From Octopus vulgaris (taxonomy: Eukaryota): a DNA stretch of 64,000 bases. The translations under genes and the position numbers were made by a program. The stretch lies in NCBI GenBank assembly GCA_951406725.2, contig OX597826.1:2790001-2854000 (forward strand). The letters run 5' to 3'. Positions 14,190-58,119 of this stretch are shown here, in pieces. How positions within the stretch are numbered: position 1 is the stretch's first letter; each line of letters starts with the position of its first letter. The notes under the pieces are model-generated. The model did no database searches. It was not told the origin of the DNA and saw only the letters and a list, made by a program, of their open reading frames with translations.

Positions 14190-14640
14190 TTTGCGGGAAA
14201 GACTGTTTCAACGAGGTCATGTATTGTCCTTACCTTCGGAACGCGGAGTTGATGAAACAAGGACAACTGATGAAGGGAAATATTCTTTATGTTGCATGTC
14301 TCCTTTCTCTGTCAGTTATTTATCGTTGTTCGAAAAAGGTTCGTTATCTGTGTTTTTGGTTTATGTTTTCTTTTCTTATTGTGTTCAACATTTTGTGATG
14401 TCCTGTACCCATATATGCATCTATATAAACATATATATGTAGGTATGTACATATATGTATGGATATATGCATATATATACACATTCTTAATTTGTTCTCC
14501 TTATTTCTTTCTGTGTTCCTTTCTGTGGAAGGGCGTAGGCTCGAAACGTTAAAGACATTTTCACTTCCATAGCATTATATTAATACATTTCCTTGTTGTC
14601 TACACAATCTGTCTTCGTCGTTTTTTTTGTGAATTCTCCC
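14190..14640 (+). mobile_element. PLE-like 3' fragment (family H1) ending in (TA)n
   Basis: Homologous to 21193-21336, 34243-34341 and (minus strand) 52500-52718. Carries an HHR-like motif. Confidence 0.7.
14519..14554 (+). ncRNA. Hammerhead-like motif, H1 family (A6U core)
   Basis: CTTT-CTGTGGA-A-GGGC gtag GCTC-GAA-ACGT-T-AAAG. Confidence 0.55.
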
Positions 14641-14702
14641 TATATATATATATATATATATATATACAGGACGTGTATATATATATATATATATATATAT
14701 AT

Positions 14703-14995
14703 ACAGGATGTGTGGCCCACTTGTTTTACTCACGATCGCGAGAACGTGCTTTCGGTTCATAGGCCGGGAAGAGTGCTGTAAACGTTAGCAAAACAAGTCA
14801 TCACCCGTTGATCTCTGATCACTTCGACACCTGACGCATATTACACTGAGAACCTCTTCAGTCGACATCGATTTGATGGAGAGAGTGAGTTGATATACGG
14901 CACATATAAGTAATCACTAAAAACAAATTATTTGCTCAGGTCATTCGCTAAAACAAAAAATGAACTCTCATGCATCATCGACGGGAGAGTCCATC
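14703..14995 (+). mobile_element. Decayed tRNA-type SINE
   Basis: TGTGGCCCACTTG...GGTTCATAGGCCGG head. The 3' end CATCATCGACGGGAGAGTCCA resembles the end of 46806-47090. Confidence 0.45.
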
Positions 14996-16131
14996 ACATA
15001 TATACATGCATACATGTATTCATAAATACATACATCTATTACTTATGTGCAAAAGTTCTGTCTGTGGGTGTGTTTCTGGAGTTGTTAGCTACCTACTCCT
15101 ATATTGTTTTATTGGTTTTGATGAAACTTGACACGTGATTATAACCCATGTCTGGAAACATCAAGGCATAATCAGTGTTGAAAACATCGATAATAGGGCC
15201 CCTGGAAGGGATCCTTATATATATTTAATAAATTTTACTTTAAAAATCAAGGGAAATAACGCAAGCGCATCCTTATATATAGCCAAGGGAAATAACCCAT
15301 TTATTTTCCTAAATTATTTGGTAAAAATGAAATTGAGTATGCTTATTTGTTAGTATTTGACTGCTTGAGTTATTTTCGCAACTTATCCAGTACAACATTT
15401 AAACAAGTAAATAGTATTTTCCTAAACAACAGATCCACTTATTTCGGTTAGTGACTTATATACCAATACTAACTTCCCTGAGGGTAATATTCTTTGGGAA
15501 CGCACAAAAGCCCTTTTCAGAGATATGTACTTTGAATTGTTATTATCACGTATCTGATTAGCCTGTTATTATTTTAGTATATATACCTTATTAGTATTTC
15601 CTCCTATGTTCTATATACTCTGGGAACGCATTAAAGCCCTTTCGGGCTGCTTTATATGATTATTATATAATTCATATGGTTATCATATAACTGACTTCAC
15701 AATTTGGTTATTCATAACTTATAGGGAATTCCTAAAAAAAAGATCCTGCGTAAGACAGTTCGGTATTCTTTGTAAATGCACAAAACCCGTTTTAAGGGTT
15801 ACATACTTTGTATTGTTATTGCATTAGCGAAACAATTATGAGAACGGAACCAAGGGATAAGCCCCACTTTCCTGAGAATTAACGTGTACGTCAGCTAGTA
15901 TATTCATATATACATACATATAAACATACATATATATCCGTATATATATATATATATATATATATATATATATATATATATATATATATATATATATATA
16001 TATGTATATATATATGTACATATATATATATATATATATATATATAGTTTCTGTATGTTTGTGTGTTCTTGGCTGTGTAAGTGTGTGTGTGTGTGTGTGT
16101 GTGTGATTGTGTGAATCGTAAATCGTTCACA

Positions 16132-16673
16132 TTATTTATATGCCGTTAAGTTTATGTCCGGTGATAGAGTGATCAATGGTTTCGGATCCATATTATACGT
16201 CCCAGTCTTATGGACGTGTCGTCAGACTCTTAAGCCGAAGACGTATAACCCTTCAACTATGAAAGGCAAGAATTTGTTACGGTATTTTAGTTAAGTAACC
16301 AAAGAATAAATAATCCGGGTTGGCGAGGACAGGTTGTCTCACTTAGACCAGCTCATGTGGGCCAAAAGGCAGGGAGCTCTTAGGCTGCTTTTCTTTCTTA
16401 AGGACCTTTTCGGATCTTATCGATGAACGGGAAATTCCATGATTACAGCATGTAGCGTTTGAAATGGACGCGGGGACTGTAAATTTCCTGCCGAGAGTTC
16501 AGTAACTCTGGTTTGAGGAAGTCTTTGAGGTTCGTTGTTCGCTTAGCTATGTAAAGCTTGCAGCGTCCGCTCCTGTTAATGTAAGATCCCGACCGCTCTA
16601 TAATCCTTCACTTGATATCGTATGGAGGTTCCTTCACCTTTGAGACGCCATGTGTGACTTTCGTCTTTCCGTC
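16132..16673 (-). mobile_element. 5'-truncated PLE: GIY-YIG endonuclease C-terminus plus 3' UTR with HHR (Naiad-like)
   Basis: Minus translation HTWRLKGEG/PYDIK*RIIERSGSYINRSGRCKLYIAK...KPELLNSRQEIYSPRVHFKRYML. The clade label is from recall of the CxxC...CxH C-terminus. Confidence 0.85.
16166..16230 (-). ncRNA. Type I hammerhead motif with long stem II
   Basis: AGAGT-CTGACGA-[35 nt, TCCATA/TATGGA pairing]-GAAA-CCATTG-ATC-ACTCT. Confidence 0.7.
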
Positions 16674-55006: not shown

Positions 55007-55439
55007 TAGGCGTAGGAGCGGCTGTGTGGTAAGTAGCTTGTTTACCAACCACATGGTTCCGGGTTCAGTCCCACTGCGTGGCACCTTGGGCAAGTGTCTT
55101 CTACTATAGCCTCGGGCCGAGCAAGGCCTTGTGAGTGGATTTGGTAGACGGAAACTGAAAGAAGCCCGTCGTATATATGTATATATATATATATATATAT
55201 ATATATATATATATATATATGCGTGTGTGTGTTTGTGTGTCTGTGTTTGTCCCCCTAGCATTGCTTGACAACTGGTGCTGGGGTGTTTATGTCCACGTTA
55301 CTTAGCGGTTCGGCAAAAGAGACCGATAGAATAAGTACTGGGCTTACAAAAGAATAAGTCCCGGGGTCGAGTTGCTCGATTAAAGGCAGTGCTCCAGCAT
55401 GGCCGCAGTCAAAAGACTGAAACAAGTAAAAGAGTAAAA
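55007..55439 (+). mobile_element. SINE family B, full-length well-preserved copy
   Basis: Box A-like GCGGCTGTGTGG, box B-like GGTTCAGTCCC, CORE-like ACCTTGGGCAAGTG, internal (TA)n(TG)n and a GTAAAAGA-type tail. Confidence 0.92.
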
Positions 55440-56454
55440 TGTATATATATATATATAGAGAGAGAGAGAGAGGGGGGAAGAGAGAGGGAGGGAGAGAGAG
55501 ACTGATAAATAGATTGATTGATGCAAATTTAGATAGAAAAATAAATAAAAGTGAGGATAGATGGATTGATGGATGGATGAACTGATGGGCGGCCGGATGA
55601 TAGGATATTCAGGTAAACTGATAGACTCACAGGTGGAATTGATAACGTCTGAACTGTCTTGGAGATACTGACTAACACGTAAACACAAAACCTTAATAAA
55701 CATACAAACATATTCACACATACACACATATATACAAACACACATGATATGTATGTATGTCTGTCTGTATGTATGTATGTATGTATGTGTGTATGTATGT
55801 GTATATATATATATATATATATTTATATATACTCATATATATATATATATATATATATATATATATATATATATTACATATATATGTGCCTGTGTGAATT
55901 CAAAAATCTCCAATTGGCGTGCTGAGTGCTGATGATATCACAAGTGAGATATGCTGGACGCCATTTTCTTCGGACGTGATGTCAAACCAGACAGCAGTAA
56001 TTGATTAGGACTGCAAGTATAACATTCTGTGATAATTTTATAAGCCCATAGCGAAGTGTCGCTTATTGGTAATACATTATTTGCAATTCATGTAAATGGA
56101 GAATATTTTAAATCATTTTGGTTAACAATATAAATCAAGAGTTAACTCCAGTCTTTAAACGACCGATGTGATTCAGTTATTATTTAAAAATCCTTTTTAT
56201 GTGAAATATGAATACGTTGAAAATATGTTTACGAAATGACTCACACGAATTGACGTAGATTCGCTAAGGCTGTAAACGGTGCACAAGATTATTACATTAT
56301 TTCAGTTAGACACTTCCTTTATTTTATTAAGAAGATCAGATATTAAATATTTTCTAGCAAAGAAAGATATGATGAAAAGGTGTGCACTGAGGACGCATAG
56401 TACTAAGACGGTATCTCGGATATTGCAATAAGGTACACGACAATAGTAATTATG

Positions 56455-57060
56455 GATAATAATGACATTAATATTAATGACAAGAAGAAGAACAATAGGA
56501 GCAACAAGAACAACAACGATAGTAATAATAATAATGATAATAATAACAATAATAATAATAATAATAATAATAATAATAATAATAATAATGATGATGATGA
56601 TGATGATGATGATGATGATGATGATGTTGATAATAATAATAATAATAATAAGAATGATGATGATGATAATAATAATAATAATAATAATGATAATAATAAT
56701 AATAATAACAATAATAATAATAATGATGATGATGATGATGATTATGATGATGATAATAATAATAATAATAATAATAATGATGATGATGATAATGATAATA
56801 ATAATAATGATAATAATGATAATAATGATAATAATAATAATAATAATAATAATAATAATAACAATAATAATAATAATGATGATGATGATGATGATTATGA
56901 TGATGATAATAATAATAATAATAATAATAATGATGATGATGATAATGATAATAATAATAATGATAATAATGATAATAATGATAATAATAATAATAATAAT
57001 AATAATAATAATAATAATAATAATAATAATAATAATAATAATAATAATAATAATTATAAT
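56455..57060. repeat. Compound (AAT)n/(GAT)n microsatellite with a ~153-bp higher-order duplication
   Basis: Variant AAC and TAT triplets recur at a 153-bp offset (56709 and 56862). Confidence 0.93.
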
Positions 57061-57660
57061 GATCTTTGCAACCACTCGAATACTCTGGAGGGTGCTCGAA
57101 AAACTAGAGGCGTTGCCCTAGTTCACTGGTAGTGAACAGCTGACACTGTAATAGTCTTATAATAATACTACTTGTCACTGCGTTACTTAGCCAGTCTGTA
57201 TCGCTTTCACGTGGTTAGAGAAAAGGAATGAGAGAGGAAAAGAGGGAAAGAGAAGCGTCCATGACGTGAGGTGGAGTAAGTGTAATTGTAAGGCGGTCAC
57301 GTGATTAGTTGTAGGGAAAGAGAACGTAAAAGACGGACCGAGAATTGACCATGGCCTGAGGTGGGGGAACGTAATATTTACTACGTAGTTTAAAACAGTT
57401 ATTTGAAGTTAGAAGATAAAAGTTGAAAATATAATTTTAGCAGTGGGGTGATGTACTGATGGTGAGGTTCAAGAAAGGCAGAGAGAGAGAGGGGAGAGAG
57501 AGAGAGGACGAGGAAGAGGCAAGGAAGAGAGTGGGGTAGTGATAGGGGATAATGATGATGATGGTGCTGGTCGCTGTAAGGGGGATTGAGGTGGGGGAGA
57601 TGGTGATGGTGGAGGTGGTGGTGGTGATTGGATAGTAAAAATTGAATCCCTAGCACGCCG

Positions 57661-58119
57661 GGCTTCGACACATTTCCTGTGTCCTTATATATTTACGAAG
57701 GGGAGACAAATACCCTCAACAGCTAGGCCTGCATCTAGAGACACACGTGTTTCAGGGTCTTTGCCCATCATCGGTCTAGAGTAGCAGAAGCCTGCTAGCT
57801 GAAGATGTCTGTCTCGACTTCGCAAATATATATATCTAATTTTCAGTGAAGTTTATTCACTGATCACCAAAATCAGAAATATTAAACTTCTAAATATCTC
57901 ATAGAGATATGTACGGTGATGGGGCGATAGAAGACCCTGAAACATGCGTGTCTCTAGATGCAGGCCTAGCTGTTGGGGGTATTTGTCTCTCCTTCGTAAA
58001 TATCTAAGGACACAGGAAATGTGTCGAAGCCGACAGGAAGCGGCGATGCTTCCTAGGGCTAAACAGCGGTGATGTAATCCCCTACTGTCACGTTAAATTG
58101 ACAGTATACAACCATTCCA
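57661..58119. mobile_element. Inverted-repeat HHR element (family H6) ending in (TTA)n
   Basis: Arms 57661-57761 and 57931-58031, about 5 mismatches in 101 bp. The plus copy extends to the (TTA)n tract at about 58120. Confidence 0.88.
57734..57780 (-). ncRNA. Type I hammerhead motif (GUC site, U4C core) on an extended stem I
   Basis: TCTAGA-CCGATGA-T-GGG caaaga CCC-T-GAAA-CACGTGTG-TC-TCTAGA. Confidence 0.75.

Follow-up and report, generated by a model that had tools for sequence, protein, structure and literature searches.

What kind of element has left hammerhead ribozyme motifs at some fifteen positions along 64 kb of the Octopus vulgaris genome? The window, by which we mean the whole analysed stretch of 64,000 nucleotides (contig OX597826.1, positions 2,790,001 to 2,854,000; G000:C13:2790001-2854000), lies within a 2.8-Gb microsatellite-rich animal genome. 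A first-pass annotation, made from the letters alone, had described it as a dense archipelago of about 15 type I hammerheads in roughly nine families, borne by short or non-autonomous Penelope-like elements (PLEs) that target microsatellites. The observation is largely real, and its headline interpretation corresponds to a known phenomenon at ordinary density. The motifs are most probably the hammerhead ends of at least nine families of mostly decaying, 5'-truncated PLEs that occur genome-wide, and in one of them, family B, a head resembling a transfer RNA (tRNA) likely marks the transcription start. It is family B that is worth testing.

Each claimed site was searched against its own genome; the best 40 of 134-3,260 candidates were scored, 20-30 loci were kept, and a majority sequence was built for each family from 19-29 other copies, the window copies being excluded. 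A type I hammerhead was called where the core C3-A9 was found together with G12-A15.1, U16.1 and a base other than G at position 17, and stems I-III were paired; the stem lengths used in counting pairs were set after the majorities had been seen. The described sequence is present at all 15 coordinates. These sites form ten repeat families: A (14519, 21216 and 34289), B (47668), C (36938 and 37000), D (16166), E (32471), F (21826 and 37291), G (24376), H (49353), I (57734 and 57912) and J (15111). Nine of the families (A-I), and with them 14 of the 15 sites, have a hammerhead majority, whereas J is not a hammerhead family and 57912 retains the 3' half only. Site 15111 was rejected, its best fit having two core changes, a G at the cleavage site and one of three stem III pairs. 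The majorities of A, C, D, E, F, G, H and I contain a complete type I hammerhead with all counted pairs kept. For family B, stem I has three of four pairs in the query-biased majority and four of four in an unbiased set (24 of 30 loci), and G is found at 47709 in about 98% of the sequencing depth of run X16. The core is canonical in the majorities of B, C, D, E, G and H, and carries U4C in F and I and A6U in A.

That AT-rich repeat DNA produced these folds by chance is extremely improbable and is refuted for families A-I, where the majorities restore both core and stems. A strict type I descriptor matched the window three times, whereas 40 dinucleotide shuffles made block by block averaged 0.075 matches; allowing one core mismatch gave seven matches against a mean of 1.05 (20 shuffles), and admitting U4C and A6U gave four against none in 60 shuffles. 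Intact motifs are thus more frequent than in shuffled sequence. The chance explanation does hold for 15111 and the 57912 motif's 5' half, and it draws some support from minimum-energy folds of five hammerhead-region stretches, which were no better than those of shuffles (z -1.08 to 0.91). A scan of the window for U3-A8 cores gave no additional motif. Of the 429 Rfam matches in the window, the 150 listed included no hammerhead, and no family reached gathering score in the loci L061, L364 and L260; for minimal variants such as these Rfam is not informative.

Covariation within families, proposed as a test in the first-pass annotation, was nearly absent: six double changes in the stems remained paired and 11 were broken, and 123 single changes left the pair intact compared with 116 that broke it. 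Between families covariation is seen, the stem pairs differing in identity yet staying paired. The non-CpG change rates were 0.024 in the core, 0.048 in the stems and 0.058 in the flanks, a gradient which is partly a selection effect of the search. Copies within a family decay after insertion. Only four of the 15 window copies (14519, 36938, 37000 and 57734) are intact compared with their own family, with no core change and no broken pair. The copy at 57912 has lost its 5' half (five core changes and eight broken pairs compared with family I), and the motif described there is chimeric because only the 3' half of the family I hammerhead is present.

The proposed link to PLEs was borne out. Families A, B, C, D and E join coding sequence for reverse transcriptase (RT) or for a GIY-YIG endonuclease; RT was seen for B and C, and endonuclease only for A, D and E. 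The GIY-YIG-like remnants reported upstream of 16166 and 32471 were confirmed, and such sequence lies upstream in the sense orientation at 17 of 25 family D loci and 2 of 25 family E loci, both window sites included. Family A joins a GIY-YIG C-terminus at 3 of 30 loci, and in L309 nothing interrupts the passage between it and a GIY-YIG domain (E 0.002 in Pfam, short of the curated cut-off). Family C, which is young and Hydra-type (97-100% identity among 54 listed matches), flanks in L091 a scrambled Hydra-type open reading frame (ORF) with DKT, CxCX5C and CxxC motifs, into which its tail leads. Pfam missed the endonuclease pieces of this ORF and of family B; in the ESM Atlas both fall with GIY-YIG clusters (12-37% of members). 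Because five families connect to RT or GIY-YIG remnants, we take most motifs to be the ends of 5'-truncated PLEs. PLE-type inverted pairs with one-sided tails were observed as well; in those of family B the tail was found on exactly one arm in 13 of 15 and on both arms in none (two rows being one place).

It is quite improbable that most motifs are instead independent non-autonomous ribozyme retroelements, of the type of retrozymes without long terminal repeats (non-LTR retrozymes) or of SINEs (short interspersed nuclear elements). Most copies are short and non-coding, and another part of the genome (L260) does hold a true retrozyme-like array. The ORF searches also weigh against a uniform PLE origin: within 1.5 kb at 20-25 loci per family, no ORF link was found for G and H and one doubtful locus each for F and I, and therefore some of these four families may be non-autonomous. 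On the other side stand the ORF links of five families, the fixed 3' ends combined with 5' ends scattered across copies, as expected of truncated full elements, and the absence from the window of tandem 170-400 nt hammerhead units of the non-LTR retrozyme type. Short or non-autonomous elements are therefore mostly unneeded, with family B as the exception. Apparent pile-ups of 5' ends in C, F, G and I were discarded as artefacts of the single reference used.

Targeting of microsatellites, counted as a microsatellite following the 3' end of the element (backgrounds 0.11-0.23), was found for families A (25/29), F (23/24) and C (19/28) and in part for D (11/24), E (13/24), G (14/24) and I (9/24), but not for B (3/29, and 3/30 in a second set) or H (4/19). 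The (ATT)n beside 47668 is an internal segment of family B. The individual features are as follows.

14519..14554, plus strand: family A minimal hammerhead, core CUGUGGA (A6U), intact, at the 3' end of a 5'-truncated Neptune-type PLE; the element spans about 14490-14640 and terminates in (TA)n.
15040..15900, unstranded: family J repeat of fixed length (about 900 bp) with TA-rich flanks, containing the 15111 motif.
16166..16229, minus strand: family D hammerhead, old, two broken pairs; the majority has a bulged 8-bp stem II and a 3-bp stem III.
16458..16589, minus strand: broken C-terminal remnant of a Hydra-like GIY-YIG, situated upstream of the hammerhead of family D.
21216..21251, plus strand: family A copy, one broken stem II pair.
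21826..21873, plus strand: family F copy, one core change and two broken pairs; majority core CCGAUGA (U4C).
24376..24434, minus strand: family G copy, canonical core, two broken pairs; no ORF link found.
31367..31621, plus strand: broken remnant of a Hydra-like GIY-YIG, situated upstream of the hammerhead of family E.
32471..32531, plus strand: family E copy, two core changes and one broken pair; majority canonical.
34289..34324, plus strand: family A copy, decayed, two core changes and one broken pair.
36938..36981, minus strand: family C hammerhead, intact, canonical; left arm of a head-to-head inverted pair, with PLE tail.
37000..37043, plus strand: family C hammerhead, intact; right arm of the pair, without tail, ending in (TA)n.
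37291..37338, plus strand: family F copy, heavily decayed, four core changes.
47305..47616, minus strand: near-complete short copy of family B, with tRNA-like head (47616-47555), (AAT)n (47554-47468), body with partly deleted hammerhead, and tail.
47669..47712, plus strand: family B minimal hammerhead whose core is canonical, with pair 1 of stem I broken here; carried by the right arm (47619-47760, without tail) of an inverted pair.
49360..49404, plus strand: family H copy, canonical core, one broken pair; old family, no ORF link found.
57734..57780, minus strand: family I hammerhead, core CCGAUGA (U4C), intact compared with its family.
57931..58110, plus strand: family I right arm, 3' half of the hammerhead only.

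The minus-strand family B copy at about 47305-47616, with its deletion inside the ribozyme, is a sixteenth copy that the first-pass annotation did not report. Family J, about 900 bp long with an internal repeated motif and with ends fixed within TA-rich flanks (1,758 first-look candidates), also adjoins the family B ORF in L397 and is possibly a non-autonomous DNA element. A young Neptune-type PLE was met in L350-L363 (e.g. L350:2146-4578, plus strand), with many near-identical open 811-aa frames (RT, GIY-YIG) and, about 150 nt past the stop, a U3-A8 hammerhead with a 2-bp stem II. Judged by these frames it was likely active recently; as a candidate parent it was rejected for every one of the window families.

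Family B has a layout of its own. A short copy consists of a 75-nt head, (AAT)n, 57 nt, the hammerhead, a 3' stem-loop and an optional tail. Some copies extend upstream into a Penelope/Poseidon-type ORF with RT and GIY-YIG, the stop of which lies 29 nt before the head; the junction to RT and GIY-YIG was found in L392-L394, L397, L398, L400 and L401. Relatives of this ORF carry RVT_1 and PF26215 (54-68% identity for the top 11 of 12 matches). In 10 of 18 copies a frame that opens about 40 nt ahead of the core continues uninterrupted across hammerhead and tail; it aligns with the N-terminus of the full-length relative P0016 (score 85, reached by 0 of 2,000 shuffles; next protein 39). No relatives of P0016 were found in metagenome contigs. 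The full unit opens with the head and (AAT)n, continues with the ORF, whose start runs across hammerhead and tail and which goes on to RT and GIY-YIG, and 29 nt further on meets the next head; since the ORF stops before the head and overlaps the hammerhead at its start, the repeating unit has the head at its 5' end. A free-standing SINE, considered for family B at one stage, was dropped once the ORF was found upstream. The 3' end of the short copies is a PLE tail, followed by a microsatellite in 3 of 30; the parent is a PLE, and there is neither a partner among the long interspersed nuclear elements (LINEs) nor a simple-repeat tail. A second B-box-like motif, 57 nt upstream of the core, lies between (AAT)n and the hammerhead, inside the ORF start (e.g. 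window 47645-47660).

In the short copies of family B the 5' end is defined and coincides with the head. Distinct copies with a head number 62; the first bases are present in 36, of which 25 terminate within -9..+5 next to unrelated or inverted flanks; the end rates in neighbouring 15-nt windows were 2/62, 8/60 and 16/52 downstream and 4/11, 1/7 and 1/6 upstream. The best-supported loose ends in four public runs (X15, X16, X18 and X1) are located at head +1, and in these runs the head exceeds the ORF end several-fold in summed depth, which is not a copy number. For 15 full heads, the majority has an A box at +8 and a B box at +53, and the tRNA-invariant bases T8, A14, T33, A37, G53-A58 and C61 stand at their standard positions. 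The A/B box pattern matched six times in 600 kb, compared with no match of the reversed pattern, and the only phage match of the head is an annotated tRNA (E 0.05). On this sequence evidence we lean, by a small margin of belief, towards the head as the site where the RNA starts. That RNA polymerase III (pol III) drives the autonomous element is a more tentative proposal. By definition, SINEs depend on LINEs; non-autonomous LTR elements are known to carry pol III promoters in their terminal repeats. Equally tentative is the wider scheme in which family B would be an autonomous Penelope/Poseidon element whose promoter is a captured tRNA-type pol III cassette, and in which internal priming near the RNA 5' end would have given about 20,000-30,000 SINE-like hammerhead copies, a SINE born without a LINE. 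If true, a tRNA-like head on a coding PLE would be a PLE route to SINE-like elements and would raise the question of how such an RNA is translated.

Several observations weigh against the promoter assignment. Each box is retained in only 9 of the 15 full heads. ARAGORN calls no tRNA in the head (0 in 16 loci), its relaxed scores being near those of the reversed control, and Rfam does not call the head a tRNA. Family B was never met as a complete or intact element, its longest ORF stretch being broken and about 1.9 kb long. In family A, which has no such head, 5' ends also cluster softly, 15 of 27 falling in a single 15-nt window, and a 4-bp hairpin at the -6..+4 junction may favour inversions there. 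A weak indication in favour of pol III is that the copy in L397 has no T4 run in 2,150 nt, compared with 2.84 in shuffles, 4% of which are as low; shorter copies are uninformative.

Two other origins of the short copies have to be weighed. They could be a separate tRNA-derived SINE with a borrowed PLE end, the head having entered the autonomous element later or being passive there, and the autonomous RNA being made by pol II from another promoter. We consider this unlikely, though it is the stronger of the two. Head and body do behave as one unit (10 of 12 head matches outside the selected loci are followed by the body), the copies are SINE-like in length, and most are without ORF sequence, 7 of 62 extending beyond -25. 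However, ORF-linked copies of several subfamilies have the head 29 nt past the stop, and bases -6..-1 before the head are common to short and ORF-linked copies, from which we conclude that the short copies derive from the element's own junction. Still less likely is a 5' pile-up caused by RNA processing or RT behaviour, such as an RNase P-like cut at the head or fold-back at the -6..+4 hairpin, and not by a promoter. The hairpin spans the junction, many inverted copies join there and 45 of the 62 copies sit in inversions. Yet the pile-up is also present in non-inverted copies (8 of 14 end within -9..+5), a cut at +1 would take away the 2-6 nt upstream of it that many ends retain, and the stems of the head, being disrupted, do not favour processing.

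The following course of events is proposed. The PLE protein would nick AT-rich or (TA)n DNA, and target-primed reverse transcription would begin inside the RNA near the tail, just downstream of the hammerhead, as may be deduced from PMC11167929 and PMC4209133; every insertion would then keep its hammerhead, most would stop early, and inversion would occur. In family B, if the head does mark the RNA start, the start of reverse transcription would be about 300 nt from the RNA 5' end, and short complementary DNAs would reach the start site set by the A and B boxes, land as SINE-like copies and possibly be re-transcribed by pol III. Minimal hammerheads would cleave only as dimers or with the help of protein, and cleavage is probably dispensable for insertion (PMC4209133, PMC11167929).

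Family A bears on this last point. U is found at position 6 in all 29 other family A copies, with stems intact; in unselected loci the family A lineage keeps U6 while N7 varies, and relatives with a compensatory outer stem I pair have A6. According to the accessible parts of the respective papers, A6C reduces activity whereas U4C is tolerated in vivo (PMC3088659), and hammerhead mutants of PAc still insert in vitro (PMC11167929). By analogy with the lower activity of A6C and the insertion of the PAc mutants, family A may have lost most of its cleavage while keeping the fold. With about 30,000 copies by extrapolation, this A6U family beside its canonical relatives provides a natural test of whether PLE hammerheads must cleave or only fold.

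The archipelago is not unusually dense. The descriptor gave 4 matches per 64 kb here and 31 per 600 kb in the genome background, which comprised 60 stretches of 10 kb at fixed round coordinates; 7 of the 31 come from one tandem array. The controls on the 600 kb gave 0-1 matches per shuffle (8 rounds) and none in reversed sequence. The window is genome-typical in motif density. Profiles of families A-I gave 23 matches over the 600 kb and 15 within the window, but the families had been chosen for their presence in the latter. Rough extrapolation from 24-31 matches per 600 kb suggests about 1e5 hammerhead-like motifs in the genome, with about 33,000 copies of family A (7 matches) and about 28,000 of family B (6 matches); the exact family B core pattern has 4,277 genome matches compared with none for the reversed pattern. 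The density is ordinary and of a known kind, yet it implies about 1e5 hammerhead-like motifs that Rfam does not flag. The retrozyme-like array mentioned above lies in L260 (G000:C1:20000001-20010000) at about 2300-4550 and consists of tandem 359-bp units in two inverted arms, each unit with a canonical type I hammerhead; it resembles a non-LTR retrozyme locus. Many more hammerhead families that are not in the window occur in L260-L319, among them some with U4C or U3-A8 cores or with long inserts in stem II.

The rest of the window contains broken integrase-like frames at 6134-7074 (plus strand), which we take to be Gypsy-like, 2.9 tandem copies of a 117-bp unit at 10672-11014, presumably resembling a SINE head, an assembly gap of 100 N near 11800, and a transposase remnant at 28441-29356 (minus strand), which we assume to be Mariner-like.

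The comparisons that follow refer to the accessible parts of the papers cited. A genome-wide scatter of single minimal hammerheads from truncated PLEs has already been described (PMC4209133), and the pattern of truncated PLEs seen here matches that report and PMC8557442. Like the published PLE hammerheads, those of the window have a short stem I, an extra base after A9 and a palindromic stem III for cleavage as dimers; common to both are also the large number of families in one genome, the predominance of single motifs left by truncated PLEs, and some inverted pairs 100-700 bp apart. In contrast, 2,000-9,000 motifs per genome were reported there, compared with about 1e5 extrapolated here with a different descriptor, and A6U as the fixed core of a family was not found in those descriptions. 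The main text of PMC13282606, as far as accessible, uses the words hammerhead and ribozyme 0 times. In the literature searched, which lies outside Repbase, Dfam, supplements and subscription journals, we found no description of a tRNA-headed PLE or a PLE-derived tRNA SINE, nor of octopus hammerheads or an A6U hammerhead family, the last of which may be covered by Lunse et al. (2017). The tRNA-headed PLE layout of family B and the fixed A6U core with intact stems of family A thus go beyond the literature found.

The ORF of family C is similar to those of Hydra clade PLEs in its DKT, CxCX5C and CxxC motifs and in (TA)n targeting, and family A is similar to the Neptune clade in its CCHH-type endonuclease and microsatellite targeting, both clades being assigned by motifs and not by a tree (Craig et al. 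2021, PMC8557442). Tandem and inverted insertions with a tail on one end are shared by the window PLEs and these two clades (PMC8557442). Family B is analogous to the Poseidon element PAc of Anolis, in which the ORF start also overlaps the hammerhead, a tail of 30-40 nt lies between two internal RT start sites and the target is AT-rich without being a microsatellite; unlike family B, PAc is described without a tRNA-like head or A and B boxes (Frangieh et al. 2024, PMC11167929). Short non-coding hammerhead units that presumably use PLE machinery are also known as the schistosome hammerhead SINE-like repeats and non-LTR retrozymes (PMC6765202, PMC7229834, bioRxiv 10.64898/2026.07.22.740005). These are tandem and have canonical hammerheads, whereas family B is dispersed, often inverted, and in some copies attached to its parent ORF. 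A pol III-type promoter derived from a small RNA is present in the terminal repeat of the TRIMp3 elements Cassandra, Helenus and Ajax, which family B resembles in this respect; TRIMp3 are, however, non-autonomous LTR elements (Kojima 2024, PMC10886601), whereas family B is a PLE in which the head abuts a protein-coding ORF.

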